Positions 668 through 21,759 are shown, counted from the first letter of the stretch. The stretch: DNA of 64,000 nt from Gammaproteobacteria bacterium (GCA_963422205.2 CAXMWX010000001.1:551011-615010), one strand, 5' to 3'. Notes: generated from the sequence alone by a model not told the origin. Made by a program: numbers and translations.

Positions 668-3600
668 ATCCTGATGAGGCCGAAGCGTCATGCTTCGGAA
701 TACTTATTATCTATATGGCAGGGGTGGGTTATTCGTGTAGCTTCAATGAGGCCGAAGCGTAATGCTTCGGAATACACTTGGCGAGCTAACTTCTCTGTTG
801 GATCAATGGCTAGCTTCAATGAGGCCGAAGCGTAATGCTTCGGAATACAAATAGGAGATGATTATGTCGATGAATAACAATGGTGCTTCAATGAGGCCGA
901 AGCGTAATGCTTCGGAATACCTGCGCTCAATCGCGGCAAGCATCTTGCGAAAACCCAGCTTCAATGAGGCCGAAGCGTAATGCTTCGGAATACGTAAGGT
1001 TGTACAAGCGATCAACAGTGGTGTTGCAATGCTTCAATGAGGCCGAAGCGTAATGCTTCGGAATACGTAAGGTTGTACAAGCGATCAACAGTGGTGTTGC
1101 AATGCTTCAATGAGGCCGAAGCGTAATGCTTCGGAATACTTCAAAAAAGTGTGGCTACCACAAGAGGGTGGGCAAAGCTTCAATGAGGCCGAAGCGTAAT
1201 GCTTCGGAATACAGCATAAGTCATACCTAGAACCTCACTTCGATGCTCCGCTTCAATGAGGCCGAAGCGTAATGCTTCGGAATACGTTCAAGGCCTGGTC
1301 TAGCGGACGTATGCGGGTATTGCTTCAATGAGGCCGAAGCGTAATGCTTCGGAATACATAGCTAGTTATTCCGTGCCGATGCCTGCGCTAATGCTTCAAT
1401 GAGGCCGAAGCGTAATGCTTCGGAATACCAGTGAACGCCCGCATCCATGCGGGCTTGGATACGTCCTTCAATGAGGCCGAAGCGTAATGCTTCGGAATAC
1501 AAACTCGAACGCGGAACCGAAACTGTAGGAACCTTCGCCTTCAATGAGGCCGAAGCGTAATGCTTCGGAATACAAAAAAGTCTATAGCTTTCGAAGTAGC
1601 CTCTGTAGCACCTTCAATGAGGCCGAAGCGTAATGCTTCGGAATACTCCAGTAACACGGATCAGATACCAGAAAATAAATTATCCCTTCAATGAGGCCGA
1701 AGCGTAATGCTTCGGAATACAGGGCATGGTGTTTTTAACTCGCGCAGGCTTCGACGCCCTTCAATGAGGCCGAAGCGTAATGCTTCGGAATACCATGTCT
1801 TCACCTTGTTCATTGTCATAGCCCCCCGTCCTTCAATGAGGCCGAAGCGTAATGCTTCGGAATACGCAGGCCAGTGGCCAGCACATCAACCCCGGCATGG
1901 TACCTTCAATGAGGCCGAAGCGTAATGCTTCGGAATACAGCGATGCGAGTGGCTGAAATCCTAGAGATCGACCCAGCCTTCAATGAGGCCGAAGCGTAAT
2001 GCTTCGGAATACACAATTTACCTTCGCGAGCCTTCTCGGTCTTAATCTCCTTCAATGAGGCCGAAGCGTAATGCTTCGGAATACATGCTTAACGAAATGC
2101 TTAACGCTGGTCACTGGCACTTCCTTCAATGAGGCCGAAGCGTAATGCTTCGGAATACGCTACGGCGCCCGGAATAACCGGCCACCACGACGAAACCTTC
2201 AATGAGGCCGAAGCGTAATGCTTCGGAATACCAGACGATGTAGCACGTGTGCAGCGAGGATTAGATCCTTCAATGAGGCCGAAGCGTAATGCTTCGGAAT
2301 ACGCGTTATATCTTGATCTCTTAGCGCTCGAATATCCAGCCTTCAATGAGGCCGAAGCGTAATGCTTCGGAATACCCGGTGATCATAATGGGGGTTGATT
2401 TCGGCAAGGTCTCCCTTCAATGAGGCCGAAGCGTAATGCTTCGGAATACTTTTCGTTTGCGTTATCTTTTGCCGCCGCCCCCCAACCTTCAATGAGGCCG
2501 AAGCGTAATGCTTCGGAATACATAACCGGCCACCACGACGAAAAAATTCGTCCCGCTCCTTCAATGAGGCCGAAGCGTAATGCTTCGGAATACCTTAGTC
2601 GGTTTTACCTCGCTTGCCCCCGCCGTTGCGCCTTCAATGAGGCCGAAGCGTAATGCTTCGGAATACTTGCTGAACCAGACGATAAAACAAAATTATCACG
2701 GGCCTTCAATGAGGCCGAAGCGTAATGCTTCGGAATACCACGATCGCTACGTGTCAGCGTAGGCACCGTACGCAGCCTTCAATGAGGCCGAAGCGTAATG
2801 CTTCGGAATACAAACGTGCAGGGTTAAAACCGGTGTTGCTGACAGTGCCTTCAATGAGGCCGAAGCGTAATGCTTCGGAATACTTTGTTTAGTGTGGTTT
2901 TTAATTTTTTCAGAGGCTTACCTTCAATGAGGCCGAAGCGTAATGCTTCGGAATACTCCAGCACCTTCTCGATCATCGCCAAAGCCCGTGTCCCTTCAAT
3001 GAGGCCGAAGCGTAATGCTTCGGAATACACTACGGCGAAATTAAATTGTTAGCTGGCTACACAGCCTTCAATGAGGCCGAAGCGTAATGCTTCGGAATAC
3101 ACTACGGCGAAATTAAATTGTTAGCTGGCTACACAGCCTTCAATGAGGCCGAAGCGTAATGCTTCGGAATACAGTTAGTTTTGATTTTTTTAGTCGCTTA
3201 AACTCGATCCTTCAATGAGGCCGAAGCGTAATGCTTCGGAATACCCAGGAGTAGATGGTAGAGGCTTGTTCTTGATCGCCACCCTTCAATGAGGCCGAAG
3301 CGTAATGCTTCGGAATACAGCAGATTCTAAGATGGTCTGGTTAGCAAGACGTATGGCCTTCAATGAGGCCGAAGCGTAATGCTTCGGAATACCTGATGGA
3401 TGTTGATCTGGTCGAGGCCGCCGCCAAGCCTTCAATGAGGCCGAAGCGTAATGCTTCGGAATACGCTATATACAAGTTGCAACAACCGCGTCAAATCAAC
3501 GTCCTTCAATGAGGCCGAAGCGTAATGCTTCGGAATACGAGCGGGAGCTGGCCGAGGAAATCGGCAAACGTGTACCTTCAATGAGGCCGAAGCGTAATGC

Positions 3601-6600
3601 TTCGGAATACCGATCAAGTATCTATCGTACGCGTCACGTTAGACGCCCTTCAATGAGGCCGAAGCGTAATGCTTCGGAATACGATGATCCGAATATCTGC
3701 CCAAGGAACCTATTATTATCTTCAATGAGGCCGAAGCGTAATGCTTCGGAATACGTACGCCGGGCGGCGTATGGTTCCGCGACGTCAGATTCTTCAATGA
3801 GGCCGAAGCGTAATGCTTCGGAATACGCGGCGCTACCCTGGATCAAATAATTCAGCAACTTATCTTCAATGAGGCCGAAGCGTAATGCTTCGGAATACAA
3901 CAACCTACTTGTTGCGCCTGATGATTTTACCGTCTCTTCAATGAGGCCGAAGCGTAATGCTTCGGAATACCTGCGACTCGCCCAGCTACAAGCGCAACAG
4001 TGTCTGTCTTCAATGAGGCCGAAGCGTAATGCTTCGGAATACGCAGTCTTTTAATTCGCGTTGCCACTTACGCAGCTATCTTCAATGAGGCCGAAGCGTA
4101 ATGCTTCGGAATACAACGCAGTCATACGCAAATTGAAAGTATCACCAGGCATCTTCAATGAGGCCGAAGCGTAATGCTTCGGAATACTACCATAGAGGCG
4201 ATGGGTTATTTTCGTTTTTTCGACTCTTCAATGAGGCCGAAGCGTAATGCTTCGGAATACCTGCGACTCGCCCAGCTACAAGCGCAACAGTGTCTGTCTT
4301 CAATGAGGCCGAAGCGTAATGCTTCGGAATACGCAGTCTTTTAATTCGCGTTGCCACTTACGCAGCTATCTTCAATGAGGCCGAAGCGTAATGCTTCGGA
4401 ATACTAGCAGCATAACCTACTCGCCCACCTGCTCACCTGCTCTTCAATGAGGCCGAAGCGTAATGCTTCGGAATACACCACGATTACCATGCAACAACAC
4501 TTCCGGGTATGGGCTTCAATGAGGCCGAAGCGTAATGCTTCGGAATACGATTTAAAAAGCGGAACCTAGGTCCAAGCATAGGCTAGCTTCAATGAGGCCG
4601 AAGCGTAATGCTTCGGAATACATTTGCCTAGTTATGCTTTTATTTTTCCTCGCGGTAGCTTCAATGAGGCCGAAGCGTAATGCTTCGGAATACGAGGACA
4701 GGGCGTATATCATGCCATCCGAATTTCATGCTTCAATGAGGCCGAAGCGTAATGCTTCGGAATACAATTATCGTGATTATTAATAATATCTTGATGGGGG
4801 TGCTTCAATGAGGCCGAAGCGTAATGCTTCGGAATACGTCGCAGCAGCCGATCCCCCTAGCATGTTGCCGCGGCTTCAATGAGGCCGAAGCGTAATGCTT
4901 CGGAATACCGGGAACTGTATAGCGAACGTGACGGCGCCTATGAACGCTTCAATGAGGCCGAAGCGTAATGCTTCGGAATACGTACAGAGCTACTGTTGCT
5001 AATTCTGTCGGCGTGTAGCTTCAATGAGGCCGAAGCGTAATGCTTCGGAATACTGTTTTACCCTAGGCCTTACCCTAGGTGACCTCATTTGCTTCAATGA
5101 GGCCGAAGCGTAATGCTTCGGAATACCGTTTTAGCCCTGTTTTACCCTAGGCGCCCTCATTTGCTTCAATGAGGCCGAAGCGTAATGCTTCGGAATACGA
5201 CGACATCAAGACGGGCAAGGTATACGCTGATCATGCTTCAATGAGGCCGAAGCGTAATGCTTCGGAATACTGCCCATCATCTAGCGACACGACGATCTTG
5301 ACGCGGGTGCTTCAATGAGGCCGAAGCGTAATGCTTCGGAATACATATTTTTTCGAGTTGCTGATCTAATTATTTTCAGCAGCTTCAATGAGGCCGAAGC
5401 GTAATGCTTCGGAATACCTCATCCTCACGTAGTACCGCCGCAGAATTGTTGCGGCTTCAATGAGGCCGAAGCGTAATGCTTCGGAATACGGAGAAAAAAA
5501 TGCCAAGATCAAAAAAACAAATACAGCTTCAATGAGGCCGAAGCGTAATGCTTCGGAATACATCTGCCTAGTTATGCTTTTATTTTTCCTCGCGGTAGCT
5601 TCAATGAGGCCGAAGCGTAATGCTTCGGAATACCGGGAATACCAAGATGCTTCTCGGCCACTTCCAGATCGCTTCAATGAGGCCGAAGCGTAATGCTTCG
5701 GAATACAAACTATCACCAACTGACTAATCACTTAGGTATACGCTTCAATGAGGCCGAAGCGTAATGCTTCGGAATACTTAATCTTCATAATTAATGTAGT
5801 CCTCCACTAATTGCTTCAATGAGGCCGAAGCGTAATGCTTCGGAATACTTCCGCTGTTGGTAGCGTCCACGATTACTGTATCAAGCTTCAATGAGGCCGA
5901 AGCGTAATGCTTCGGAATACGTTTTACCCTAGGCCTTACCTTAGGTCACCTTACTGCTTCAATGAGGCCGAAGCGTAATGCTTCGGAATACTTCAAGATC
6001 ACCGTTGCAAGGGCGGGGGGTGCTAATGCTTCAATGAGGCCGAAGCGTAATGCTTCGGAATACATCATTTCCGCCAAAAACAAATGACAAGCGCCCCTTG
6101 CTTCAATGAGGCCGAAGCGTAATGCTTCGGAATACTAAACGGCGCTGATCGTAACGACATCATTGCCGACAGGCTTCAATGAGGCCGAAGCGTAATGCTT
6201 CGGAATACTTAAATCTGCTGCTGATAGATATCTCCACATACCGCCGGCTTCAATGAGGCCGAAGCGTAATGCTTCGGAATACGCGAATATCAGCAGCTCG
6301 TTAGCGCAGGCATCCGCAAGGCTTCAATGAGGCCGAAGCGTAATGCTTCGGAATACACGCATCCATGCGTGCTTGAATACGTCAAAATATGGCTTCAATG
6401 AGGCCGAAGCGTAATGCTTCGGAATACAAAGCCGGGAGAGATCCAGACTCAGAAATTGCCTTCGCTTCAATGAGGCCGAAGCGTAATGCTTCGGAATACT
6501 TCACTTTGCGGTCTTATAGCTCGTCAACATTCGACAGCTTCAATGAGGCCGAAGCGTAATGCTTCGGAATACCAAAATTATCTCGGGTAAGTCCCGGCGC

Positions 6601-9600
6601 AGCTTGCAGCTTCAATGAGGCCGAAGCGTAATGCTTCGGAATACGGCGGTAAACCAAGCGCAAAAAGAAGTGACGGTGAACGCTTCAATGAGGCCGAAGC
6701 GTAATGCTTCGGAATACTGCGTCACTTTTCTTCGAATGCCACGTCGTCCTCACAGCTTCAATGAGGCCGAAGCGTAATGCTTCGGAATACCAAGCCGGGA
6801 ATCAACCAAAGGTACATAGAATACGGAGCTTCAATGAGGCCGAAGCGTAATGCTTCGGAATACTTTTTAGTGGTTATGGGAAACGAAAATAACATGAATT
6901 GCTTCAATGAGGCCGAAGCGTAATGCTTCGGAATACGGGCCCGCTACCAGGGAATAGAATCCCTCCAACAGTAGCTTCAATGAGGCCGAAGCGTAATGCT
7001 TCGGAATACCAACAGGTGTTCCCAACACCACGTCACGATCAATGGCGCTTCAATGAGGCCGAAGCGTAATGCTTCGGAATACAGGTTATCTAAGCAGACG
7101 CCAATAACTATAGACGTAGCTTCAATGAGGCCGAAGCGTAATGCTTCGGAATACGAAGTGATCCAGACTCGGAAATTGCCCGCAAAGTGTGCTTCAATGA
7201 GGCCGAAGCGTAATGCTTCGGAATACCGTGACATAGCGATCGGTATCGTCGAGCGAGAAATGCTTCAATGAGGCCGAAGCGTAATGCTTCGGAATACCAC
7301 TACTAGCGGGAGCAACAGCCAAAAAATCGGCACGGCTTCAATGAGGCCGAAGCGTAATGCTTCGGAATACAGGGTCGCCAGCAACGCTGTCTGTACGCAC
7401 CAGCCGGCTTCAATGAGGCCGAAGCGTAATGCTTCGGAATACTCCCTAGCTAGTTGCGCCGATGAGCTGTACGCCTTGGCTTCAATGAGGCCGAAGCGTA
7501 ATGCTTCGGAATACGCAGTAACACGTGATCGCCCTTCAGGATCATACGCATGCTTCAATGAGGCCGAAGCGTAATGCTTCGGAATACTCCCTAGCTAGTT
7601 GCGCCGATGAGCTGTACGCCTTGGCTTCAATGAGGCCGAAGCGTAATGCTTCGGAATACGCAGTAACACGTGATCGCCCTTCAGGATCATACGCATGCTT
7701 CAATGAGGCCGAAGCGTAATGCTTCGGAATACCCCAGATGTCGTAATACATTTCCTTTGCTTTGTCGAGCTTCAATGAGGCCGAAGCGTAATGCTTCGGA
7801 ATACTCTACCTGCAATTGCATTGCCAGGATTCGCATTACCGCTTCAATGAGGCCGAAGCGTAATGCTTCGGAATACGCCCATCATCTAGCGACACGACGA
7901 TCCTGATCCGGACGCTTCAATGAGGCCGAAGCGTAATGCTTCGGAATACGGCAGAAGCGAGTAACACTGATGCAATACCAGCAAGGCTTCAATGAGGCCG
8001 AAGCGTAATGCTTCGGAATACCGGATCAGATTGATCGGGCGGGTGGCGTCGACAAAAGGCTTCAATGAGGCCGAAGCGTAATGCTTCGGAATACGGCTAG
8101 GCCGACTAACCGATCACATAATTCAATCAAGCTTCAATGAGGCCGAAGCGTAATGCTTCGGAATACAGCGGAACCCCGTCCAGCAAAAAAGAAATACGTC
8201 CCCGCTTCAATGAGGCCGAAGCGTAATGCTTCGGAATACCACAACTGCCCCCGGTAGAATGGGAATAACTCAGTGGCTTCAATGAGGCCGAAGCGTAATG
8301 CTTCGGAATACGATGATACCTAGTTGCTTCGCATACAGCGATCCAGCGCTTCAATGAGGCCGAAGCGTAATGCTTCGGAATACGTACAGAGCTACTGTTG
8401 CTAATTCTGTCGGCGCGCAGCTTCAATGAGGCCGAAGCGTAATGCTTCGGAATACTGAGTATACTACTGGTGGAGATGGGAAAACTAAAAGCTTCAATGA
8501 GGCCGAAGCGTAATGCTTCGGAATACTTGGGCGCTTGGGGCTAATGCCGATCCGATACCAGGCTTCAATGAGGCCGAAGCGTAATGCTTCGGAATACGGC
8601 GTTGGGTTTTCGCAAGGCGCTCTTGCGACCCGCGCTTCAATGAGGCCGAAGCGTAATGCTTCGGAATACATCAGATTGATCGGGCGGGCGGCATCGGCAA
8701 AAGTGAGCTTCAATGAGGCCGAAGCGTAATGCTTCGGAATACCGCCGCGGAAAAGGTACATAGATCAATGCCGCTTCGTGCTTCAATGAGGCCGAAGCGT
8801 AATGCTTCGGAATACCGCCACACTAACTGTCTCGCCACGTGACACCCGTGGCTTCAATGAGGCCGAAGCGTAATGCTTCGGAATACGTGATGAAGCGGTG
8901 CAGATATTAGATCAACTAGGATGCTTCAATGAGGCCGAAGCGTAATGCTTCGGAATACATACGCGTAGACGCCCGGTCGTGTAGTTCCACAAAAGCTTCA
9001 ATGAGGCCGAAGCGTAATGCTTCGGAATACCATTTTTTTCTTGCGGTCTTTCTCGATCACAACAACGCTTCAATGAGGCCGAAGCGTAATGCTTCGGAAT
9101 ACTACACTGGCCGCAAGGAACATCGATTGGCATATCGGAGCTTCAATGAGGCCGAAGCGTAATGCTTCGGAATACGCTTAAACTCGATAAAAAAAATTTC
9201 GCCGGAAGACGCTTCAATGAGGCCGAAGCGTAATGCTTCGGAATACGGCCATGTTTGCTTTTTTCCTCGTGGTAGCTAATTAATGCTTCAATGAGGCCGA
9301 AGCGTAATGCTTCGGAATACGGCCGTGACTGCATACCCATCACCGGATCGAAAGACGCGCTTCAATGAGGCCGAAGCGTAATGCTTCGGAATACGACCCT
9401 AGATCAAGAAATTGAAAAGATTGAAAACGAGCTTCAATGAGGCCGAAGCGTAATGCTTCGGAATACAAGTTTTCCCTCGCGAGCCTTTTCGCTCTTTATC
9501 TGGCTTCAATGAGGCCGAAGCGTAATGCTTCGGAATACGAAGTTTTCCCTCTCGAGCCTTTTCGCTCCGCACCTGGCTTCAATGAGGCCGAAGCGTAATG

Positions 9601-12440
9601 CTTCGGAATACTCATCATGTATTGTTCTTGTCGTTTCTTTCTGCCTAGCTTCAATGAGGCCGAAGCGTAATGCTTCGGAATACCAAGCCCTACGTATCTG
9701 GTGCTATTACCTTCCATCGTGCTTCAATGAGGCCGAAGCGTAATGCTTCGGAATACTACTGCAAAAAAAATTAAGTGAATCAGGGATCAAACGCTTCAAT
9801 GAGGCCGAAGCGTAATGCTTCGGAATACCAGGGTATTATTGTAACTGGTGTAATTTTTCAAAATCGCTTCAATGAGGCCGAAGCGTAATGCTTCGGAATA
9901 CCAGCTACGGGGTCGATCTTTTTTCCGATCTTCGCCGCTTCAATGAGGCCGAAGCGTAATGCTTCGGAATACCCGATGATATTACGGGCCACAGTAATAG
10001 GGAGTTAGCGCTTCAATGAGGCCGAAGCGTAATGCTTCGGAATACAGAGTGTCGATAATATCTCTGCGATTAGACCAAACCGCTTCAATGAGGCCGAAGC
10101 GTAATGCTTCGGAATACTTTTGTTCTGTGGTTTGGTCGCCGTCTAACTATGTCGCTTCAATGAGGCCGAAGCGTAATGCTTCGGAATACCTCGCATTTGT
10201 TCCTGTCTTAATATTTGCCCGCCAAGCTTCAATGAGGCCGAAGCGTAATGCTTCGGAATACTCGGCATATTCACCAGGTCGCTGGTGGTGAGGCTCCAGC
10301 TTCAATGAGGCCGAAGCGTAATGCTTCGGAATACAAACCAGTTCACTCCAGAGACTCTTGGTCGTAGATCGCTTCAATGAGGCCGAAGCGTAATGCTTCG
10401 GAATACTCCAGTTTTTAGCTGCTCTGCGTTTATGCGACGCAGGCTTCAATGAGGCCGAAGCGTAATGCTTCGGAATACACACCATGCGTTAGGTGTGGAG
10501 GTGCCGGAACTAGCGCTTCAATGAGGCCGAAGCGTAATGCTTCGGAATACAGCTCTCCCGCCTATACCACCCGATGTTGCTGGCGGGGCTTCAATGAGGC
10601 CGAAGCGTAATGCTTCGGAATACCCGCCAAGCGTTCATCGATGACGGTTTCGTAGATCCGGCTTCAATGAGGCCGAAGCGTAATGCTTCGGAATACACGG
10701 CGAGCTGGCGCTGAACGGCAATCCGATTAATGGGCTTCAATGAGGCCGAAGCGTAATGCTTCGGAATACTGCCGGTATCGCATCGCTGTTACCACTACGC
10801 GCCCAAGCTTCAATGAGGCCGAAGCGTAATGCTTCGGAATACTCCCGCAGACTGATATAGAGTCACCAGTAGAGGCAGAGCGCTTCAATGAGGCCGAAGC
10901 GTAATGCTTCGGAATACGAAAATAATTAGATCAGCAACTCGAAAAAATATAGGTGCTTCAATGAGGCCGAAGCGTAATGCTTCGGAATACAAACGTTACG
11001 GGAGAGGAAGAAGAAAATGAGTATGAAGCTTCAATGAGGCCGAAGCGTAATGCTTCGGAATACTTCGCTGCCGCCGCAAACACTCGATCAAACGGGTGAT
11101 TTGCTTCAATGAGGCCGAAGCGTAATGCTTCGGAATACTGGAGACCCTACAGTTTATTTTGTACGCTATAGCGGGCTTCAATGAGGCCGAAGCGTAATGC
11201 TTCGGAATACCGAATCGTAGTGTAGTGGATATGCTTACCTCGCAGGCTTCAATGAGGCCGAAGCGTAATGCTTCGGAATACCTGACTTTGGGCGCAACCA
11301 ACAATTTGAGGTCGACGGTGCTTCAATGAGGCCGAAGCGTAATGCTTCGGAATACAAAAAAACAAATACAGAATTGGGATGAGGAACTAGCGCTTCAATG
11401 AGGCCGAAGCGTAATGCTTCGGAATACCTTCGTAAAACCATGGTTAGAAAAATTTAATGTTCCGCTTCAATGAGGCCGAAGCGTAATGCTTCGGAATACG
11501 CTGCTGAGATAGGGCAAGCGATCAACGGCACGCAAGCTTCAATGAGGCCGAAGCGTAATGCTTCGGAATACTATTCCCCCCGCCCTATACTGTGTTTGTC
11601 GGATCGAGCTTCAATGAGGCCGAAGCGTAATGCTTCGGAATACCAGTCGGCGATGTTGCTACAGTAGCGACACAAACAAGCTTCAATGAGGCCGAAGCGT
11701 AATGCTTCGGAATACAGGATGATCCAGACCAGGGCGGGGATGGTGATGCTGGCTTCAATGAGGCCGAAGCGTAATGCTTCGGAATACACAGTGCAGATGA
11801 GGTTGTGTATACTATTTTTTCGGGCTTCAATGAGGCCGAAGCGTAATGCTTCGGAATACCCTAGGAGTCAATTCGTAGGGGCGCTGATAGGCCTCAAGCT
11901 TCAATGAGGCCGAAGCGTAATGCTTCGGAATACGCATCGCAGGGCGTTGCCAGGGGTTGCCTTGCTCGAGGCTTCAATGAGGCCGAAGCGTAATGCTTCG
12001 GAATACATCCTCGAGTCTGTAGATTTCAGCAACGGAGTGCTCGCTTCAATGAGGCCGAAGCGTAATGCTTCGGAATACAATTGGAGTAAGTTTTACTCTT
12101 ATGTCTCTCGCCAGGCTTCAATGAGGCCGAAGCGTAATGCTTCGGAATACCGGAAGGTAAAACAAACATTCTATCCGGCCACGATCTAGCTTCAATGAGG
12201 CCGAAGCGTAATGCTTCGGAATACAGCGATCGACAACACCGCCTCTTGGGCGCGTAGTGGGCTTCAATGAGGCCGAAGCGTAATGCTTCGGAATACACAA
12301 ACCACCGCCGAGAACAGCCGCAGTTCCAGGATGCTTCAATGAGGCCGAAGCGTAATGCTTCGGAATACGCAAGCGATCAACGGCGTGCAACAAAAATATT
12401 CGTAGCTTCAATGAGGCCGAAGCGTAATGCTTCGGAATAC
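668..12440 (-). CRISPR. Type I-G (I-U) CRISPR array, about 163 repeats, spacers mostly 35-38 bp; transcribed-strand repeat GTATTCCGAAGCATTACGCTTCGGCCTCATTGAAGC
   Basis: 36-bp repeat GCTTCAATGAGGCCGAAGCGTAATGCTTCGGAATAC recurs with ~72 bp period. It contains the hairpin CCGAAGC/GCTTCGG. A degenerate trailer repeat at 668-703 and the leader/cas2 at the right end fix the orientation as minus. Repeat count is approximate. Confidence 0.99.
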
Positions 12441-12646
12441 AGCCTTGCCGTATCACCTGCTATGGCAGGGTCTAAAAACTCCCAGTGCGAGCGCTGATCA
12501 GCCAAGACCGAAATACGCATCCACAATTTATGTTGTGCATACATAACAACAGCATAACCCCTTGTTTGTTAAAGAGCAACACCAATGCGAGCGCTCCCCG
12601 GTGATAGCATCATCACCGCCGCACTCGCTAACGTCAGGCAAGTTCA
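12441..12646 (-). promoter_or_regulatory. CRISPR leader with direct repeats TGCGAGCGCT and an IHF-like site
   Basis: Non-coding gap between the first repeat and the cas2 stop. TGCGAGCGCT at 12486-12495 and 12586-12595. TAACCCCTTGTTT at 12555-12567 is one mismatch from the IHF consensus YAANNNNTTGATW. Confidence 0.8.
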
Positions 12647-12937
12647 TCATACGATGATCGGTTCCCGAACAACAGCGTTAAATTCCTTGCCGAGGCTGGT
12701 CACTCTCGGCGCCACCGCATCGGCAGGCCCCAGATCCAGTATCAAGATATGATCCTCTCGATGGTGGATCAGCTCATCCAGCATGGCGATGAGCTCCGCA
12801 TGGCGCCTGGCGGACAAACGGCACTGGAAGACAGATAATTGCAACCATTCGCCATAGCCACGCAGCAGCGTGAATATGGCGCGCCCGCGCCTGGCATCGC
12901 CGATGTCGTATGCGATCACATAAAGATGCTCATTCAT
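12647..12937 (-). CDS. cas2: CRISPR-associated endonuclease Cas2
   Basis: 96 aa, YVIAYDI...LRGYGEWLQLSVFQC, adjacent to array. Confidence 0.97.
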   Translation of the reverse strand: MNEHLYVIAYDIGDARRGRAIFTLLRGYGEWLQLSVFQCRLSARRHAELIAMLDELIHHREDHILILDLGPADAVAPRVTSLGKEFNAVVREPIIV

Positions 12938-12943: not shown

Positions 12944-14653
12944 TCATCTGGTTATCAGTTGTGGAAAGGCGATCATATCGCCTAACAGAAATCTGGAGAG
13001 CAACCTGGCCTGCAATTCAAGCAGGCGCCGATAACTCAGCCGGTAGCCAAACAGCGGGTGCGTTATCTCCTGGCTTAGGCGTCTTTCATAGGCGGCGATA
13101 AAACGCTTGCGCCCATCGGCGGTTAAATTAACACTGCCAGCGGCGGCGACAAAGTCGCTTGGCCTGAGCTCGCCATTGTTAATCACGGTAAGCACGGTGG
13201 AGTCCGCTATGAGTGGTCGGAACGGCTCCATCATGTCCAACGCCAGGGCCGGTCGGCCATAGCGGGGCTGATGATAAAACCCGCGGTAAGCATCAAAGCC
13301 GACTGCCGTTAAGGTCACCGTCCAGGTCTTCACCAGCAAGGCATAGGCGTATGAGAGCATGGCATTGACCGCATCGGCGGGCGGGCGGCGGTTGCGGCTG
13401 GCAAAATCAAAGGTGATGTTCTGGTGTGCTTCCTGGTGTTTAATGAGATAGTCAAATGCGCCGAAATAGTTCGCTGCCGCGTTGCCCTCCACCCCCAGCA
13501 GCTGCTGGATGGATGAGGCCCGGCCAGCCTGGTCGGCATCGCGCCGCAGGGTCTTTATCAGTGGCTTGCTGCTGTGTTCTGCCTTCCAGTTACGGCGCAA
13601 CAAGGTACGGCAATTCAAAATCTTCGCACGCACCAGGCCCCTGGCTAACGTCAAACACACCTGCTCATCAAAACTCGCCTTGTATTGGGCGGTGCGTATT
13701 TCAACATTCTTATGACCCACGCCAATGCTGTGTCCTAAAAACCAGCCGCCGTAAGAGTGCCAGCTCACCGGTATTTCCCGCCGCATCAACTCATGCAGGG
13801 TCGGCGTTGTCAGATAAATATTGCCCATCAATATCACCTGCGAGACATCCACCAGACGGGCGTGGGTCACCGGCTCATCGCCAATGGAAATCTCCAGCCG
13901 CTCGCCGCGCTTGCGAACAGCCGCCTTATGCGCCTGAACATACAGCGGCAGGGCGGTATCATGGCCGATGGTCAGCAGCCTTGGCGGGGTATCGGTTCTG
14001 TGAAAAAAATTCACCTCATCCGGCAGGCAAATACCCACCAGCGAACAGCGCGGACACTTAGGGCTGTCTTCGAGCGGGGGCGGCATCTGGCCGCCCGCGG
14101 CGATCAACCGCATCCCATTGATCGCGGACAATGTCGCATTATGCAGTTCCTCATCAAATCGTACCGCTACCTTCTCTTTCGAGCCGGCAAAATACAGAAA
14201 ACCCGAATCGCACTCATAGCCATGCTCTTGCAGCAACATGCCTTGCAGGCACAGTTGCACGCGCTCCGGCGCATAAGCGCCCTTGGCAACGTGCGGTCGT
14301 TTGCCTTTTTTATAATCCACCGGTATCACCTTGCCCGCCTCCGCCTCCACCAGGTCCAGCTTGGCAATGACGCCGAGGCGCTCTGATGACAGCGTGACGG
14401 AGCGTGAATGAAAAGCATCATCCTGGTTCAGCTCGGTCGCTGCCGGTAATTTGTTATCCGGCGTATCAACGCGCCGATGCTGATAACGGCCGGCCACGGT
14501 ATCGGCGGATTCAGCCCATTCGCCCTGCACCCATTCAAGGTAGGCAAGGCGCGGACAATACTGGTATTCATTCACCATCCGTGCAGGCAACAGCGGCAGC
14601 GCTGCTGAGAGTTCCGGTGCAGGCAAGGGCAATGTTATCTGGGTATCCGTCAT
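12944..14653 (-). CDS. cas4-cas1: Cas4-Cas1 fusion (type I-G)
   Basis: Cas4 motifs (YCPR, KLDLVE, DYKKG, CPRCSLVGIC Fe-S cysteines) followed by Cas1 (GVEGNAA, RNRRPP, NAMLSYAY, GFYH, LALDMMEPFRP). Start could extend to 14689. Confidence 0.97.
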   Translation of the reverse strand: MTDTQITLPLPAPELSAALPLLPARMVNEYQYCPRLAYLEWVQGEWAESADTVAGRYQHRRVDTPDNKLPAATELNQDDAFHSRSVTLSSERLGVIAKLDLVEAEAGKVIPVDYKKGKRPHVAKGAYAPERVQLCLQGMLLQEHGYECDSGFLYFAGSKEKVAVRFDEELHNATLSAINGMRLIAAGGQMPPPLEDSPKCPRCSLVGICLPDEVNFFHRTDTPPRLLTIGHDTALPLYVQAHKAAVRKRGERLEISIGDEPVTHARLVDVSQVILMGNIYLTTPTLHELMRREIPVSWHSYGGWFLGHSIGVGHKNVEIRTAQYKASFDEQVCLTLARGLVRAKILNCRTLLRRNWKAEHSSKPLIKTLRRDADQAGRASSIQQLLGVEGNAAANYFGAFDYLIKHQEAHQNITFDFASRNRRPPADAVNAMLSYAYALLVKTWTVTLTAVGFDAYRGFYHQPRYGRPALALDMMEPFRPLIADSTVLTVINNGELRPSDFVAAAGSVNLTADGRKRFIAAYERRLSQEITHPLFGYRLSYRRLLELQARLLSRFLLGDMIAFPQLITR

Positions 14654-14853
14654 GTCAGAACATTGGTTTATTTTTCCGACCGCTATCATAGCAGTAATGC
14701 TGGGCAGGCTTTAGCGAAGATGCGGTGGATGACGCTAAGGCAGCATCGTGTTTACAGGCAAGTGAAATAAGGCAGCGGTATGTATGCCATACGCCCTGGC
14801 TTTAATTACTTGTACTTCATAACTCGCTGCCGCCCGGTGTTACCTCTCATCCG

Positions 14854-15798
14854 TTATGTTGCTGGCTCAACGGGGACAGCAGCCGTGAAGTTACGGTATT
14901 TGCCAACAGTAATGCGCTGAGAGCGGTATATTTCACCAATACCACGCGCTTGAAGTGCATCAAAGTCTTGGTGTGTAAAGACAGGTTTTTGCAGTACTTT
15001 TATTGTTAAAAGAGAACGTACAGTATCCAAACCCACAGGAAAGCGCCACATCGGCCAGGCCCAGAAGGTATCTTTACTGCCTTTCCCCCGAAAACCTATG
15101 GTGTGCAATTGCTGGCCTACCGGGGCAGTTGACATAAGCGGAAGTCCTTCAATCGCCAATCTGTTTGCTCCCCGAACCGTCATGATGGTATCTCCACTCG
15201 GATCCCTCCATCTAAGTGCGTAACGCCGGTCATCTACAGGGTCCCAACGGAGACTTGGTTTTTCATCAGCGTATGTCCACTGATGAAACAGGGCGCTTTT
15301 CAGATCGGTTTTTTTCGTTTCCTCTCTTATCTTTCGCATGGACTTCAAAAAATGCTGGTGTCCTGCACCACTCATGGTTCTCAAGGCAGTATCCACAATC
15401 ATACCTTTATCGTCTGTAACTGCCTCAGAGCCAAGGGCCGCCAAAAATCTTACATATTCTTGCTCGTCAAACCTTGCTCGTTCCAAGGCATCAGCAGCAA
15501 TTTTACGGAAGCAGTCAGGAGAGAATTTTATGTTATCGCTCAGTTCAAATGCTTCACTACCGGGGGATTTTTCTAAGAACAGGGCTAATTGTTCAAGCAG
15601 CTCATCTTGCGTTATGGCGATGCCAAATTTCAATGCCGGATTCCACACCGCCCGGGCACACCAGTAAAGTTTGGGATCCCATGCAGGCTTGCATAATGAA
15701 CAGGAACGCAAAGTGCCCAAGGCCGCCAAAAAACCCAATGGGTTGGCACCGTTAATTCCGACCAGGATATGCTCGTTCTGTTTTTTCTGCTGATTCAT
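14854..15798 (-). CDS. cas8g: Type I-G large subunit Cas8g (short Cas8u2/Csb3-like form)
   Basis: 314 aa following cas3; GINGANPLGFLAALG N-terminal motif, LRWDP..DRRYA and GANRLAIEGLPL motifs of I-G Cas8. Confidence 0.8.
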   Translation of the reverse strand: MNQQKKQNEHILVGINGANPLGFLAALGTLRSCSLCKPAWDPKLYWCARAVWNPALKFGIAITQDELLEQLALFLEKSPGSEAFELSDNIKFSPDCFRKIAADALERARFDEQEYVRFLAALGSEAVTDDKGMIVDTALRTMSGAGHQHFLKSMRKIREETKKTDLKSALFHQWTYADEKPSLRWDPVDDRRYALRWRDPSGDTIMTVRGANRLAIEGLPLMSTAPVGQQLHTIGFRGKGSKDTFWAWPMWRFPVGLDTVRSLLTIKVLQKPVFTHQDFDALQARGIGEIYRSQRITVGKYRNFTAAVPVEPAT

Positions 15799-18707
15799 CA
15801 GGCAACCTGCCGTTCAATTTGCTGGTGCTTTTGCTCTTCTTCACTGCTTCTCCAATCCGCCAGGCGCATCAAAGTCTCCAGCCATGCCAACCCCCACCAG
15901 CCATAACGGCGCACCAGCAGCCAGAAGCGCTCACTGATGCCGCTATCTATACGTTCAAGCCCTGTATTAGTATCGGCACTGAGTTCATGACTATCAAAAG
16001 TCATTGTCACTTTTTGCGGTGCTTGATCGTGAATGACCGGTGCAAATGGACGGCAACGACCATGATGGCTGGCGATAAGGTGCAATACCAAGTCCGAGTC
16101 ATGCGCCTGGCGCAGTAATACCGGTGCGCTTTCCGCCAGGCGCACGGAGAGCAGTTCATGCCGACCGCCTTTGGGGTAGCGGCTGCTTTTACGGGCGGCG
16201 CGACGCTGCCTTGGGCTTGCCGATATTCGTCCGGACTTGGCAAGTAACTTTCCTGATGCTTTTGCCAGCCAGGGATTACCCTGATGCAGCAATGCCTGAA
16301 AGCGAGGATCGATCTTGCCCAAATCGTGTAGCCGTGCCGCCAGGATGATATCCTCACGCAGTTTCACATCCAAACCCTCAGTAAAACATCTCGCCCAGCG
16401 TCCCACGCCTTCCAGGTGTTCTGTCAATTCCACCGGCACAGTGGCCGAGGATAAATCATCTTCATCGCTGAAGGATGAATGCTCTTCATCACTCGGCAGG
16501 TTTTTACTACCCTGCAATATCCAGCCGCCACAGGGATGCGGCAAACAGCGCAGTTTTTTATCGCTTGCAAGCGCCGAAGCGATTTCTTTCAGCCAGTCCG
16601 GCTCCGCCGTCTTGCTGAGTGTATCCAGTGGCTGACGTAACACCTGATACGCATCGTCTGCTGGAATATCGGTCTGCTCAACAAACTGCATAAAGAAATC
16701 ACGCATCTCCCCCGTCGGCCAGCGCACCAACAATGCCGGATGAATGCGTAATACAGGGCGTCTTTTCATTTTGAATACGGCCTGCTCGGCGCAATCTTCC
16801 CAAGCACCTTGCGGAATATGCCCCAGGTCATCCCAGCCTTTTTGCGTTGCTGGTAATACCACCACATCACCGGGACGCAGGTCGGCAGGTTCTTGGTAAA
16901 TCCGGCTTTGCTCATCTTCCGGGCCGAACCAGCGAATGAATCGCCTCTCCTGATTGCTCTTGCTCTGCACATCGTCAGCCAACCTCTGCCCGTCAACATC
17001 ACTGAGTTGATCAGTGACATCGCTGCCCTGTAACCATGAACGCATCACCGCCAGAGGCACCGGCATACACTCCATCGCCAGCGGCATGCACAGCCCCAGC
17101 GCTTCTATGCAGGATGACTCATCCTTTATTATCAAATCAGCACGCCAGCACACCAGCACATCCGCCGGGCCACGCTTTGGACCGTGCAGAAAAACGGCAA
17201 CATCGGGATCGGGTGCCGGTTTGGGCGAGGTTTGCACCAATAAATCCAGATGGGAAGGCAACAGCACCGGCGCATTTTGGGCAGGCGTGGAGAGTGGTTG
17301 TAATAATTCCCGACAAGCATCTTCCTCAGCAGGCAGTAACTGCTGAAATTGCTTGATGCCGAAATCAATCTGTTCTCGTCCATCTTTGGTTAGCCATTGC
17401 CAGGTGTTGGCCAGAGCCTCGCCGTACACCGGATCGGGCGACTCTGTTTTAATTTGATCCTGCCGCACCATGATCACGCCACGGGCATCAATCTGACAGC
17501 CACCGCGATTCAAGCGCCCGAACCGTTGCCGCAAGGCATCCAGCCCGGCACACTCAGTAACCAGCACATCAAAATCCAGATTGGCACCCACTTCCAGGGT
17601 CTGCGTGGCCACCACCACGACCGGTCGTTCGAGGCTACGCTCAGCATCACCGCTACGCACCGCCAGTTTATGTATCCATTCACCAACGATGGCATCCTTG
17701 TCCACAGTACGCATACGACCGGTGAGCAACACACTGTCAATATCACCCCGGGCCTGCAAATCCTGGTAAATCAGACATGCGGTTTTCACCCGGTTGACGA
17801 TCACACCTATTGCCTGCACACCGCTTTCAAGGAAGATCTCTATCTCGCCGTTCATCGCCTTGGCCAATTCGGGTAGCGCCGCCTTGTCTTTGGCTTTTTT
17901 CGCCTCCTTTAACTCAACCGGCTTGGATGCCATGATTCTCGGCCCCAGCACCTCATGGCTTTTATCATCATCGTCAATCCTGAATATCTCATCCTCGCTC
18001 ACCTCATCCGGCGGTGTTGCCGACAGCATGGTATGGACGAAGGGGGCGGCCAGCTTTTCGCTTTCCGCCCATCGGCGGTATTTGCCAATCGCCTGCAAGG
18101 TTTGTCGGAACGGATTGGCACAATGTGCCTCATCAAGGATAATCAGAGCATCGTTGGCCGCCATTGCCGCGTGTATGGGCACCGTATAATCAGAGCGTAA
18201 GCCGTAACCCCGGTATAACAGCCTAGAGCCGATCTGATCGACCGTGCTGGCGATAACGCAGGGTTGCAACGGATTTCTTATCCATTGATCATCGCGATAG
18301 ATCCCGCCACGTAGCTGCACACAGGCCAACGGCAAGGGGCCGCTTGCCAGTGTACGCAAACGTTGGGCAACGGTGTGCAATATACCCACCTCGGCTTGCT
18401 CAAGTTTGGCGGCGATTCTCTGCGCCCGTTCATAAGCCTCATCAACGATGATCCGGCGATCAACCACAAAAAAGATCCGCCGGGGCGCTGCACACTGGGC
18501 TAACTGCTGCTCTGCCTGACTGGCCAGGGCGAACAAGGCGATATCCATGCAAGCGGTTTTACCAGCACCAGTGGGCACGGCAATACAGGGTGGCCACGGC
18601 TCGCCCTTCGCGATTCGCAAGGCCAGTTTTTTCTGCCAGGGGAAGGGAGCATAGCCATGCAGTGCCTGAAAAAAATCCGTAAACTGCTCTGCTTGCAAGG
18701 CTGGCAT
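15798..18707 (-). CDS. cas3: Type I-G Cas3 helicase with C-terminal HD nuclease (intact)
   Basis: PFPWQ, VPTGAGKT, VVDRR, DEAH, SAT, TQTLEVGANLD, QRFGRLNR; C-terminal HL..HDLGK..RHE..SHHG..LAD. Confidence 0.96.
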   Translation of the reverse strand: MPALQAEQFTDFFQALHGYAPFPWQKKLALRIAKGEPWPPCIAVPTGAGKTACMDIALFALASQAEQQLAQCAAPRRIFFVVDRRIIVDEAYERAQRIAAKLEQAEVGILHTVAQRLRTLASGPLPLACVQLRGGIYRDDQWIRNPLQPCVIASTVDQIGSRLLYRGYGLRSDYTVPIHAAMAANDALIILDEAHCANPFRQTLQAIGKYRRWAESEKLAAPFVHTMLSATPPDEVSEDEIFRIDDDDKSHEVLGPRIMASKPVELKEAKKAKDKAALPELAKAMNGEIEIFLESGVQAIGVIVNRVKTACLIYQDLQARGDIDSVLLTGRMRTVDKDAIVGEWIHKLAVRSGDAERSLERPVVVVATQTLEVGANLDFDVLVTECAGLDALRQRFGRLNRGGCQIDARGVIMVRQDQIKTESPDPVYGEALANTWQWLTKDGREQIDFGIKQFQQLLPAEEDACRELLQPLSTPAQNAPVLLPSHLDLLVQTSPKPAPDPDVAVFLHGPKRGPADVLVCWRADLIIKDESSCIEALGLCMPLAMECMPVPLAVMRSWLQGSDVTDQLSDVDGQRLADDVQSKSNQERRFIRWFGPEDEQSRIYQEPADLRPGDVVVLPATQKGWDDLGHIPQGAWEDCAEQAVFKMKRRPVLRIHPALLVRWPTGEMRDFFMQFVEQTDIPADDAYQVLRQPLDTLSKTAEPDWLKEIASALASDKKLRCLPHPCGGWILQGSKNLPSDEEHSSFSDEDDLSSATVPVELTEHLEGVGRWARCFTEGLDVKLREDIILAARLHDLGKIDPRFQALLHQGNPWLAKASGKLLAKSGRISASPRQRRAARKSSRYPKGGRHELLSVRLAESAPVLLRQAHDSDLVLHLIASHHGRCRPFAPVIHDQAPQKVTMTFDSHELSADTNTGLERIDSGISERFWLLVRRYGWWGLAWLETLMRLADWRSSEEEQKHQQIERQVA

Positions 18708-20287
18708 TACGAGCGTTCTTCACGCATGGGACGCAACAGGCCATAGCCACGAAAGCGCCCGGCACCCAGCAATATAGGCCCCTGTACCGGCTGGGAAAAC
18801 TCCAATACTACATGACTATGGCGCATGGTACCGCCACCCTGCTTGCGTTGCATGGGGGGATAAACATGCTGAGGCGGTACGCCGATGATCGGGCTGATAC
18901 CTGTAGCCAAAACATGCGCTGGTCGCGGCAGGCTGATACGCTCACAGGCCAAGGTGAGCATTCCGGCAATTTGTTTGTCTTTATCCTTACCCTTGGGATG
19001 CCGATCAAACACCACGGGTGTGACCGAGGCCCAACAGGTAGCGGGGCGATTCCAGGTATCCGCCCTCAAGGCAAACGGCGGAAAATCAGCAAGTTCCAAC
19101 TGCACTTGCCAATCAAACAAACGGCCATGATAAAGCCGAAGTGGCTGTTGATGACCGGCATCATCGAATTGCGTCAGCCAGCCGAAATAATGATGCAAGG
19201 CATCTTGCGGTGCGGTTCTCGGCAGGGCGATGGCAACGCCAAGCAGGTGACCATCGGCATGTTCACGACCCACATGCGGCAGGGGAAACATGGCGATATG
19301 GGGTTGGCGGGATGGCGCACCTTGGCGGCTGTGGCCGCTAATCCACTCAGGGATTGGCGGTTTGCAATTCTTCAACAGCGTATCTCGCAGCGTTTTCGTC
19401 AGTAGCAACGTGCTTTCAAGCCCTAGCGGTCTGCCGCTGATGCGCTTGATGATAATCAATCTGGGATCAAATAAACTGCCCAGTATTTCTCTGGCAGCAC
19501 CGCTGTCTTTAATTCTTGCATAGCCCTGCGCTCTTCCCCGCTCAGGGCGCAGGCGCTTTGGTTCGCCGGCAGGAAATTCGTTGTTAATCTGTTCTTTTAA
19601 TCTGCGTCTATCATTTCTTGTGGCGCTTTCATGTTCTGCCTTCAACCCATGGTATTCATCAATCGCCGCTTCGTTATAAAAGCGTTTAAGCGCATCTAAC
19701 CGGCCAGGCCACGGAACACGGAGGCTGTAATCACGTCGGTCGTCACTCGGCACAAGACTTCCCCCGGGCGGATTCTGACAGAGCCAGACCTGCACCAGCG
19801 ATGCCGAGTGTCCAAGCGAAGTCACATTGCGGCATAAATGAACCAGAGCGTTTTCCCATTCCAAAGGCTGGCTATCTGTCCAGATGAAGTACACCCGGGG
19901 GTCATCGGGGATGGCAACGGGGAAATGCCTGGGTTGCCGTGAGCGCTTTTCCGGTAACAAGGAAAGACCGCTTTTTAACTGTTCTTTTGAGGGAGTTCCG
20001 TTTTCTCTTAATCTTGGCATCTGCACATCATTCACCGGTACATAGCTGGTCACTGTTTTTCGCGGTTTTGCCAGTGAGCAGTATAATGATGGTGCGCCCT
20101 GATGCTCCAGCCATTGTAACGCCTGTTCGGCCTCGGTCCTCGGGACATCATCAGCCTGAAAACAAGCGGCGGTCAAGGCCATAAACAAACGCTCTGGATG
20201 CGGCGGCCATTCGGCCTGCTGTTTCTTGGCCCCGTCCGCCGCCGCCATTGACCAGCCCATCAGGTAATGTACGCCGATGGTCAGCAT
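18707..20287 (-). CDS. csb2: Csb2 (Cas5/Cas6-like RAMP of type I-G), intact
   Basis: EWPPHPERLFMAL, YVPVND, SLGHSASLV, WASVTP, and C-terminal G-loop GPILLGAGRFRGYGL. Confidence 0.93.
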   Translation of the reverse strand: MLTIGVHYLMGWSMAAADGAKKQQAEWPPHPERLFMALTAACFQADDVPRTEAEQALQWLEHQGAPSLYCSLAKPRKTVTSYVPVNDVQMPRLRENGTPSKEQLKSGLSLLPEKRSRQPRHFPVAIPDDPRVYFIWTDSQPLEWENALVHLCRNVTSLGHSASLVQVWLCQNPPGGSLVPSDDRRDYSLRVPWPGRLDALKRFYNEAAIDEYHGLKAEHESATRNDRRRLKEQINNEFPAGEPKRLRPERGRAQGYARIKDSGAAREILGSLFDPRLIIIKRISGRPLGLESTLLLTKTLRDTLLKNCKPPIPEWISGHSRQGAPSRQPHIAMFPLPHVGREHADGHLLGVAIALPRTAPQDALHHYFGWLTQFDDAGHQQPLRLYHGRLFDWQVQLELADFPPFALRADTWNRPATCWASVTPVVFDRHPKGKDKDKQIAGMLTLACERISLPRPAHVLATGISPIIGVPPQHVYPPMQRKQGGGTMRHSHVVLEFSQPVQGPILLGAGRFRGYGLLRPMREERS

Positions 20288-20290
20288 TAC

Positions 20291-21756: not shown

Positions 21757-21759
21757 GAA

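Follow-up and report, generated by a model that had tools for sequence, protein, structure and literature searches.

In the established model, Cas4/1-Cas2 opens both ends of the leader-proximal repeat of a CRISPR array, and the full 36 bp are duplicated on repair. Repeat variants that arise under such copying have been described before. In Escherichia and Salmonella arrays, adjacent repeats share variants in runs, which has been read as the new repeat being copied from its neighbour (Touchon and Rocha 2010, PMC2886076); the available text of that article gives neither a preferred position nor a link to integration errors. In E. coli type I-E arrays, the last base of the repeat is derived from the PAM (as stated in the available part of PMC4872114). 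There this happens with every acquisition, and a deviant base stays with its spacer as a singleton. In Haloarcula hispanica I-B, a disturbed ruler results in duplications of the repeat that are off in size (PMC4872114, available text). In that system, and also where E. coli is paired with a non-cognate CRISPR (PMC3737337), the place of the leader-distal cut is set by measurement as opposed to being read from the sequence, and a cut one or two bases off produces altered ends in the new repeat. These are laboratory cases, in which the repeats had been mutated or the Cas proteins did not match.

An integrase of the same type as the one discussed here is the I-G Cas4/1-Cas2 of Methanosarcina barkeri. 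According to the available text of that work (PMC10504553), the PAM end is integrated spacer-side after the Cas4 cut, the choice of the spacer-side site is less exact than that of its leader-side counterpart, and just 60-70% of spacer-side integrations in vitro occur at the correct site. The assay uses plasmids in vitro, and the cellular fate of the off-site products is, in that text, outside its scope.

Here we analyze a window of 64,000 nucleotides from a Gammaproteobacteria bacterium (GCA_963422205.2), which includes a natural array of wild-type repeats in which the last base of the repeat switches in blocks that are fixed and propagated. Unlike in E. coli I-E, the base is normally templated, and the deviant is inherited by later repeats; and in contrast to the available text on Escherichia and Salmonella, which names no preferred position, the three successive switches here and five found elsewhere in I-G arrays affect the final base of the repeat. 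In the literature outside subscription journals, we found no account of I-G arrays whose last repeat base switches in blocks. Blocks of repeat variants as such are already known; what appears to be new is a concentration of switches at the last base.

The locus has the following parts.

668-12440, minus strand: type I-G CRISPR array, made up of 162 36-nt repeats and a degenerate terminal repeat (Rfam CRISPR-DR16)
668-703, minus strand: degenerate trailer-end repeat, the old end of the array (fuzzy match, 4 substitutions and 1 insertion)
12441-12646, minus strand: leader, with motifs GCGCTCGCA and AGCAGGTG, also present in the leaders of other I-G arrays
12647-12937, minus strand: cas2 (TIGR01573, 33.2 bits, cut-off 24.5)
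12944-14689, minus strand: cas4g/cas1g fusion (NF049935 cas4g_cas1g, 826.8 bits, cut-off 560)
14854-21517, minus strand: genes for a Cas3-extension protein, cas3g, csb2 and a Cas7g-like gene, the I-G interference module (profile matches)

Several features place this locus in type I-G. A Cas4/Cas1 fusion gene adjoins cas2 and the array, and the interference module encodes Cas3g, Csb2 (a Cas5-Cas6 fusion) and Csb1/Cas7g, with profiles above their cut-offs (TIGR02621 at 761.8 bits, TIGR02165 at 302.7, and TIGR02570 at 63.7 and 122.7). A candidate for the large subunit Cas8g at 24063-25169 scores slightly below the cut-off of its profile (TIGR04106 cas8c_GSU0052, 122.2 bits vs. 125). The 36-nt repeat ends in ATTGAAGC, an ending shared by 92 of the 95 I-G arrays that we surveyed beside cas4/1 homologues, and its last 8 nt form a predicted 5′ handle of the length reported for I-G (PMC9638904, available text). 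A scan of the leader (12441-12646) for promoters and terminators found none.

The array, with spacers of 35-39 nt, lies inside a contig of 615 kb. The 35-nt core of the repeat, CTTCAATGAGGCCGAAGCGTAATGCTTCGGAATAC on the plus strand, has 162 exact copies, the first at 741 and the last at 12406, and not one of the 162 repeats deviates at any of these 35 positions. The array also contains four exact tandem duplications, each spanning one or two spacer units. All the variation sits in the one base that precedes the core on the plus strand, which by run is G in 10 repeats (740 to 1393), C in 31 (1465 to 3647), T in 11 (3719 to 4441) and G in 110 (4513 to 12405). CRISPR-DR16 matches on the minus strand (12405-12440 plus 7 further repeats between 11900 and 12368; 43.9 bits), and the leader and the cas2-cas4/1 genes are at the high-coordinate end of the array, so the initial annotation was right in taking this base for the last nucleotide of the repeat in the direction of transcription; we call it position 36. 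The blocks and the spacers at which they begin are:

740-1428, minus strand: oldest block, 10 repeats, last base C as transcribed (G on plus)
1429-1464, minus strand: founding spacer of the first switch; the adjoining base at 1465 is C on plus
1465-3682, minus strand: second block, 31 repeats, last base G as transcribed (C on plus)
3683-3718, minus strand: founding spacer of the second switch; T on plus at 3719; protospacer not found
3719-4476, minus strand: third block, 11 repeats, last base A as transcribed (T on plus)
4477-4512, minus strand: founding spacer of the third switch, back to the canonical base; G on plus at 4513; protospacer not found
4513-12440, minus strand: youngest block, 110 repeats up to the leader, with the canonical last base C as transcribed (G on plus)

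The G to C to T to G pattern noted at the outset is thus exact across all 162 repeats. The letters (120 G, 31 C and 11 T) can be ordered in about 10^48.7 ways, and only 960 of these have three boundaries or fewer (P = 1.7 × 10^-46); in 20,000 shuffles of the letters, the number of boundaries averages 66 and is never below 49, versus 3 observed. Variants in unbroken runs ordered along the array (10, 31, 11 and 110) are what is expected if repeats are copied forward. The third block also holds a duplicated pair of spacers (3971-4078 = 4261-4368).

Does the variable base come from the repeat or from the protospacer? Spacers that overlap one another reveal what follows in the protospacer, and that base can be compared with repeat base 36. 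Spacer 2159-2195 overlaps spacer 2522-2557 in 22/22 bases, after which the protospacer continues AAA; likewise, 3173-3208 overlaps 9176-9210 in 13/13 bases, again followed by AAA. The informative spacers in the C block have flanks A, A, T and G, none of the four being C, and flanks in the G block include C, A and T. Across a set of genomes with 57 arrays, 3 of 16 informative spacers have a preceding base identical to repeat base 36. Within blocks, base 36 is copied from the repeat and not taken from the protospacer, as the initial annotation had claimed for the C block. The same 16 flanks have T at -2 in 14 cases, T at -3 in 9, and any base at -1, which points to a 5′-TTN PAM, the one reported for I-G (PMC9638904, available text).

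For a founding spacer the question is different, and only one protospacer flank is available, from this spacer:

6357-6391, minus strand: spacer homologous to the first founder 1429-1464 (identity 23/25)

It continues with CAA, where C is the new base that follows the founder, so that all three flanks reported initially (AAA, AAA and CAA) hold. This is the only one of eight founding spacers with a known flank, and it matches, with a 1 in 4 chance of doing so by coincidence; the flank is that of a homologue with 2 mismatches in 25, not of the true protospacer.

Searches for further protospacers were extensive. For 3683-3718, 4477-4512 and the five founders in other arrays, none was found in any of the collections searched. 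A BLAST search of all spacers against their own genome gave no protospacer, the only strong matches being spacers of a second CRISPR array. In a phage collection, the array part 704-8600 and then the three founding spacers singly gave chance-level matches only; the best, 27/31, is an unconvincing alignment in which the mismatches do not fall at third codon positions. A plasmid collection had 0 matches to 3683-3718 and 4477-4512. Viral contigs had 0 matches to the full 3683-3718, and the two halves of 4477-4512 had 2 and 0, the 2 being chance matches in which the other half does not fit. Founder 20-mers of arrays L089, L074, L081, L188 and L184 matched viral contigs 0, 0, 1, 0 and 0 times, and in the single match the remainder of the spacer is absent and no TTN precedes. 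None of 125 genomes of the family contains 3683-3718 with up to 3 mismatches, and the eight founders have no match other than themselves among all surveyed loci and the genome. Other arrays with the same repeat were also looked for: this genome has none beyond the one described, and 0 of the 125 family genomes and 0 metagenome contigs have one.

The survey covers 95 I-G arrays with 3718 repeats, taken from the best 80 of 541 genome matches and the best 80 of 598 metagenome matches. Position 36 has C as its majority base in 92 of the 95, and it switches heritably 8 times in 6 arrays, to be compared with about 11 run boundaries at five other positions. With the window left out, 4 of 15 run boundaries are at position 36, one of 36 positions (P = 6 × 10^-4). 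The initial annotation had suggested looking for such blocks in other I-G arrays, and five others do have the same type of switch at the same position. The five assemblies that carry them are unrelated. The eight changes are 4 C>G, 2 C>T, 1 G>A and 1 A>C, a 3:5 split of transitions and transversions as random replacement gives. The window switches more often (3 in 162 repeats vs. 5 in 3462 elsewhere; P = 0.004). Relative to the mean of its own array, a founding spacer is shorter by 0.29 ± 0.34 nt on average. In array L188, repeats R1-R4 share a two-base change in the loop, and the last base switches one repeat nearer the leader, at R3; R4 thus reads like a hybrid repeat, which suggests that such blocks can also form by recombination. 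Selection could also account for part of the surplus at position 36, if changes elsewhere in the repeat are purged.

The best reading that we can offer, about which we are evenly divided between belief and doubt, is that the three switches come from off-by-one integration on the spacer side by Cas4/1-Cas2, the integrase responsible being most likely the product of the cas4g/cas1g fusion (12944-14689). Three times, the second attack, on the spacer side, would have fallen between positions 35 and 36 of the repeat, one base in from its end. The old base 36 would then be left with the older copy of the repeat, and base 36 of the new leader-proximal copy would be the end base, on the PAM side, of the incoming prespacer. 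Given that the array grows at its leader end (12441), a change in the first repeat is inherited by every later repeat; subsequent acquisitions, measuring 36 bp again, would propagate the new base and generate clean blocks. The initial annotation had proposed such a duplication of only 35 bp. In its favor are the block pattern and its polarity, the templating of the base within blocks, the one founder flank that fits, the switches in the survey with their spectrum, the inexact spacer-side integration and the off-size duplications cited above, and the low odds for mutation given below; the part that fares less well is spacer length, since the founders are not clearly one base shorter. A normal prespacer losing one base would give about -1 nt, and so a slip requires a prespacer with one base more than usual, or else a Cas4 cut that comes a base too late. 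PAM slipping by Cas4, by one base, has been suggested (PMC10504553, available text). The I-G 5′ handle has no subunit contact except with Cas7.1 (PMC9638904, available text), and tolerance of any last base fits with this.

Would an ordinary base substitution do as well? The leader-proximal repeat could acquire one that is unrelated to the prespacer, by faulty replication or by misincorporation as the gap is repaired, and this would be copied forward, with position 36 standing out only as the least constrained base. Under the accepted model, whatever changes in the first repeat is copied forward, and stretches of variants were noted in 2010 (PMC2886076, available text); in addition, block changes occur at other positions (position 3 in L167, 13 in L109, 17 in L075), the founding spacers are not clearly short, and the loose binding of the handle would permit it. 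But evenly spread mutation predicts many singletons for each switch that propagates, and the 162 repeats of the window have 3 switches and 0 singletons. The chance that all three mutations strike the leader-proximal repeat is 1/(11 × 42 × 53) = 4 × 10^-5, and ordinary point mutation fits poorly. C>G is a rare class of spontaneous mutation, yet it makes up 4 of the 6 changes from C (P = 0.001 if its share is taken as 0.1). The C majority in 92 of 95 arrays also indicates that position 36 is constrained in the long run. As for gap repair, the 5′ ends of the prespacer are recessed (PMC10504553, available text), so it should run past position 36 and into several bases of the spacer, without singling out base 36. 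We consider a substitution of this kind somewhat unlikely. A little less likely still is that some or all of the boundaries are joints at which recombination brought together arrays from sister lineages in which different last bases had become fixed; for instance, the block of 110 G repeats together with the leader may have come from a lineage that never switched. Such a joint would yield the return to the canonical base, recombination between repeats is frequent judging from the four tandem duplications, and L188 has its hybrid-like R4. However, no second array with the same repeat was found in this genome, in the 125 family genomes or in metagenome contigs, and base 36 is the sole difference among the blocks. 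Spacers in the old blocks and in the young G block overlap the same targets (1429-1464/6357-6391, 3173-3208/9176-9210, 2013-2048/9467-9502 and 2667-2702/6573-6608). Moreover, recombination explains the order of the blocks and not their origin, as the variant bases still had to arise somewhere.

The two other explanations fare much worse. Long arrays are hard to assemble, and the blocks could be an artifact, with mixed strains assembled into a chimera or the consensus called wrongly in a repetitive region. We compared the array with Logan contigs of X1, the only public run containing the stretch (share of words 0.56), which may be the source data of the genome assembly itself. Over 1300-4700 there are 620 records covering 30/30 bins, with no other letter, insertion or deletion listed. 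The longest aligned pieces are 91-94 nt, and such short-read contigs cannot bridge the repeats, but each of them joins a spacer to its adjoining variable base, and spacer-specific contigs have similar depth in the C and T blocks (180-412). The array also lies inside the 615-kb contig, and blocks of this type recur in the five unrelated assemblies. An artifact is very improbable. We give even less credence to a mechanism like that of E. coli I-E, where the last repeat base would come from the PAM at each acquisition and the blocks would reflect a shifting PAM preference. The base is indeed on the PAM side, and E. coli takes the last PAM base along with the spacer (PMC4872114, available text), but the flanks within the blocks (0/4 C in the C block; C, A and T in the G block; 3/16 matches in the genome set) refute a routine capture of the PAM base, unless the overlapping spacers come from phage variants that diverged at exactly that base.

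Returning to off-by-one integration, we can extend it to a more general claim, one that we put forward tentatively and with some doubt: that the I-G spacer-side cut slips by one base into the repeat with a frequency of roughly 0.2% per acquisition, and of about 2% in this strain, writing a base of the prespacer into the last position of the first repeat, such that natural arrays would be a time-ordered record of integrase errors. Under this reading, given how often changes enter, C could be found in nearly all arrays only if it is continually restored by selection or recombination. Base 36, linked to the neighboring spacer, would record the form that the first repeat had when that spacer was taken up. 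If this is true, ordinary genomes provide an in vivo estimate of how accurately Cas4/1-Cas2 measures the repeat, an accuracy for which in vitro assays and mutated repeats have so far been the only source. Through deletions and duplications the variable base remains with its neighboring spacer, and would thus be a built-in time stamp that could help to orient arrays and reconstruct their history. And the last base switches frequently within arrays, yet C is nearly universal across species; this contrast suggests that selection acts weakly on the final base of the I-G crRNA handle.

The type I-G array of the window is read from 12440 to 668, because the Rfam family CRISPR-DR16 hits the repeat on the - strand over 36 nt, variable base included, leader motifs and cas genes adjoin the high-coordinate end, and a degenerate repeat lies at the distal end. 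The features are as follows.

Array surroundings in the window
668-703: degenerate repeat, one copy, far end from the leader
directly past 12440: leader, 206 bp
12647-12937, - strand: cas2
12944-14689, - strand: cas4g/cas1g fusion
beyond cas4g/cas1g, - strand: Cas3-extension gene, cas3g, csb2 and Cas7g-like gene
within 18707-26913: interference set 1, csb2 (526 aa), Cas7g-like (408 aa), cas3g (969 aa)
within 18707-26913, upstream of set 1: interference set 2, shorter csb2 (397 aa), csb1 (300 aa), cas8g2-like, Cas3g-like (644 aa)

In this orientation the repeat is GTATTCCGAAGCATTACGCTTCGGCCTCATTGAAG plus a variable base, position 36, which contacts the PAM end of the spacer (the lower-coordinate side in the window). 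The initial annotation had placed this base last in the transcribed repeat, and CRISPR-DR16, the leader, the degenerate repeat and the position of the cas genes all support it. By the I-G processing site given in the cited part of PMC9638904, position 36 would be the final base of the 8-nt 5′ handle.

The leader motifs GCGCTCGCA and AGCAGGTG are common to the window and other I-G arrays. Similar motifs occur, about equally far upstream of the first repeat, in the leaders of three distant arrays (L074, L081 and L089) and at window 12441-12520, and are candidate integration recognition sites. I-G interference genes are present in 18707-26913 as two sets in tandem; in set 2, the cas8g2-like gene scores slightly below the model cut-off, and the 644-aa Cas3g-like protein covers the C-terminal two thirds of its model only.

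Between 741 and 12440 the + strand has 162 exact copies of the 35-nt core, with spacers of 35-39 nt (36 nt, n = 79; 37, n = 51; 38, n = 15; 35, n = 14; 39, n = 2). Along that strand, the base before the core is G in 10 copies, then C in 31, T in 11 and G in 110, exactly at the block coordinates initially annotated. Thus, in the transcribed sense, position 36 went from C to G to A and back to C. The 162 repeats are identical at every other position. These letters can be ordered in about 10^48.7 ways, of which just 960 contain at most three boundaries; the mean over shuffles is 66.

The contigs of a sequencing run agree with the assembly on these blocks. From the sole public run with contigs containing this stretch, 620 contigs placed on 1300-4700 cover all bins, with no differing letter or indel listed. 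Short spacer-specific contigs each join a spacer to its adjacent variable base, at depths that are alike in the C and T blocks (180-412). The run may be the assembly's own source data, and hence not an independent isolate, but the contig agreement over 1300-4700 rules out consensus errors or a strain mix at unequal abundance.

Is position 36 copied from the neighboring repeat, or captured from each protospacer? Overlapping spacers provide an answer, as one spacer can expose the protospacer flank of another. Within the C block, A comes after spacers 2159-2195 and 3173-3208, as first noted from the sequence alone, and diverged homologues show T after 2667-2702 and G after 2013-2048. C follows none of these four, which upholds the early claim that this base is not protospacer-derived. 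Among the flanks of G-block spacers are C (after 11500-11535), A (after 6428-6463) and T (after 12225-12260). When the 57 arrays of the genome set, the window's included, were screened systematically, 16 spacers proved informative. T stands two bases before the spacer in 14/16 and three bases before it in 9/16, which fits the TTN PAM reported for I-G in the cited part of PMC9638904. The base directly before the spacer can be any letter, and it equals repeat base 36 in only 3/16. These flanks exclude routine uptake of a PAM base by the repeat, the pattern described for E. coli I-E in the cited part of PMC4872114.

Many window spacers form pairs whose protospacers are identical or slightly diverged, with one pair drawn from opposite strands, as expected under repeated sampling of related phage variants or primed acquisition. 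Examples are 4622-4657/5562-5597, 4982-5017/8384-8419, 5271-5308/7877-7913, 8022-8058/8670-8706, 9467-9502/9539-9575 and 5345-5381/10918-10954. The same genome has a second CRISPR-Cas system, of type V-A, on contig C7 at about 457000-464000 (locus L113, 12042-18890): Cas12a reads as two ORFs (977 and 386 aa), and cas4, cas1 and an array of 13 spacers come after it. Two spacers of that array share protospacers with window spacers (27/27 with 5992-6027; 23/26 with 6428-6463), shifted at the PAM end by exactly one base; because of these shared protospacers, we infer that the two systems, with compatible T-rich PAMs, sampled the same sites.

A survey of other I-G arrays, proposed in the initial annotation, has turned up heritable position-36 switches in five of them. 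We took loci around Cas4/1 relatives (the best 80 of 541 genome-collection and the best 80 of 598 metagenome matches) and a few arrays from a family search. Arrays with fewer than 5 repeats were excluded, as were three decayed arrays (one in L015, two in L100), two loci judged duplicates of L099 and L101 (L016 and L024, with the same repeat and, for L024, also the same copy number), and six metagenome arrays sharing at least 2 spacers with another array. The genome set kept 57 arrays with 2351 repeats, including the window's, and the metagenome set 38 arrays with 1367 repeats. All surveyed repeats are 36 nt and end in TTGAAG plus one base, nearly all in CCTCATTGAAG plus that base.

Runs at position 36, leader to trailer, and boundaries at other positions
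L074: G23, C31
L089: G121, C3
L081: T18, C1
L184: G6, C2
L188: T3, C60
window: three switches
L100, positions 3 and 13: short runs
L109, position 13: run of 3
L075, position 17: run of 2
L167, position 3: T11 then C9
L188, positions 17-18: 4 then 59

Counting boundaries where both adjoining runs have at least 2 repeats, position 36 accounts for 4 of 15 when the window is left out (P = 6e-4 for one position among 36, a rough value given array kinship and chosen thresholds) and for 7 of 18 when it is counted; other positions have fewer each. The window switches more often, 3 times in 162 repeats versus 5 in 3462 for the other arrays (P = 0.004). We count this excess as weakening the slip at integration proposed below. 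L100 (12268-21650) has a 69-repeat I-G array whose older part is unusually variable at position 3 of the repeat; two decayed arrays with the same repeat lie after it in opposite orientation.

Runs of repeat variants have been read as copies of the adjacent repeat since 2010 (PMC2886076, in the part cited). How does a new base enter? Point mutation at a tolerated position, spread evenly over all repeats present, would have to strike the leader-proximal repeat in all three window switches (1/11, 1/42 and 1/53, jointly 4e-5), and the window array has no singleton variants. The eight switches (four C>G, two C>T, one G>A, one A>C) have 3 transitions to 5 transversions, the random-replacement expectation, and an excess of C>G is uncommon in spontaneous mutation. 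Because evenly spread point mutation fits poorly, either switching is tied to acquisition or the blocks were built by recombination. Recombination between arrays can also make blocks, as a metagenome array suggests: in L188 (12220-12660), four leader-proximal repeats change GT to AG at loop positions 17-18 and the three nearest the leader carry T, not C, at position 36, so that the fourth looks like a hybrid from recombination with a diverged array. The window array itself carries exact tandem duplications at four places, each spanning one or two spacer-repeat units; they point to frequent recombination between its repeats, and each copy retains its block's variable base.

Tandem duplications in the window array
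994-1030 = 1067-1103
3029-3064 = 3101-3136
3971-4078 = 4261-4368
7443-7551 = 7588-7696

The canonical base regained at 4513 could be such a recombination joint. Searches of the same genome, 125 family genomes and the metagenome collection found no other array with the window repeat.

The founding spacers are those acquired in the switching events. A change in the leader-proximal repeat passes to all later repeats, so the founder is the spacer touching a block's oldest repeat: 1429-1464, 3683-3718 and 4477-4512 in the window. Across all switching arrays, only 1/8 founders has a known flank. For 1429-1464, the homologous spacer 6357-6391 (23/25 identical) continues CAAAA, and the next base, C, is the new repeat base, as the initial annotation had it. 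The run of A allows two readings, as the flank would fit a TTG PAM with its last base kept or a protospacer extended by one base next to a TTT PAM. No flank for 3683-3718 or 4477-4512 was found in the collections searched; no founder protospacer was found in the same genome, phage and plasmid collections, viral contigs or all compared loci, nor, for the one spacer searched, in family genomes.

In I-G integration, Cas4 cuts the PAM and the PAM end is then joined at the spacer side (PMC10504553, in the part cited). We propose that spacer-side attack occasionally lands one base inside the repeat, between bases 35 and 36. Base 36 of the existing repeat would then stay with the old spacer and prime repair of an intact older copy, while the new leader-proximal copy would have 35 repeat bases and the prespacer's end base as its template. 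Both single-stranded repeat copies are filled in, an established step; no mismatch would arise, and the next normal 36-bp duplication would propagate the new base. The same part of PMC10504553 gives in vitro spacer-side sites as correct only 60-70% of the time, versus 80-90% on the leader side, and raises one-base PAM slipping by Cas4 as a possibility. A ruler sets the distal cut in Haloarcula I-B, where disturbing it gives off-size duplications (cited part of PMC4872114), and a ruler-based distal cut was proposed for E. coli (cited part of PMC3737337). The 35-bp duplication of the initial annotation agrees with the flank of its one testable founder, but founder lengths are not clearly reduced: a normal prespacer giving up one base should deviate by -1 nt from its own-array mean, and the founders deviate by -0.29 +/- 0.34 nt, consistent with unchanged length and roughly two standard errors away from -1.

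Ruler slips are known from engineered repeats (cited parts of PMC4872114 and PMC3737337). A search of the main text of papers outside subscription journals found no description of a hot spot that is natural, recurrent and heritable at the last I-G repeat base, and reading it as a footprint of spacer-side mis-measurement appears to be new. Within arrays, position 36 changes most often of all positions, yet its majority base is C in 92/95 arrays. It follows that variants at this position are probably lost in the long run, perhaps by selection for C or by array replacement.
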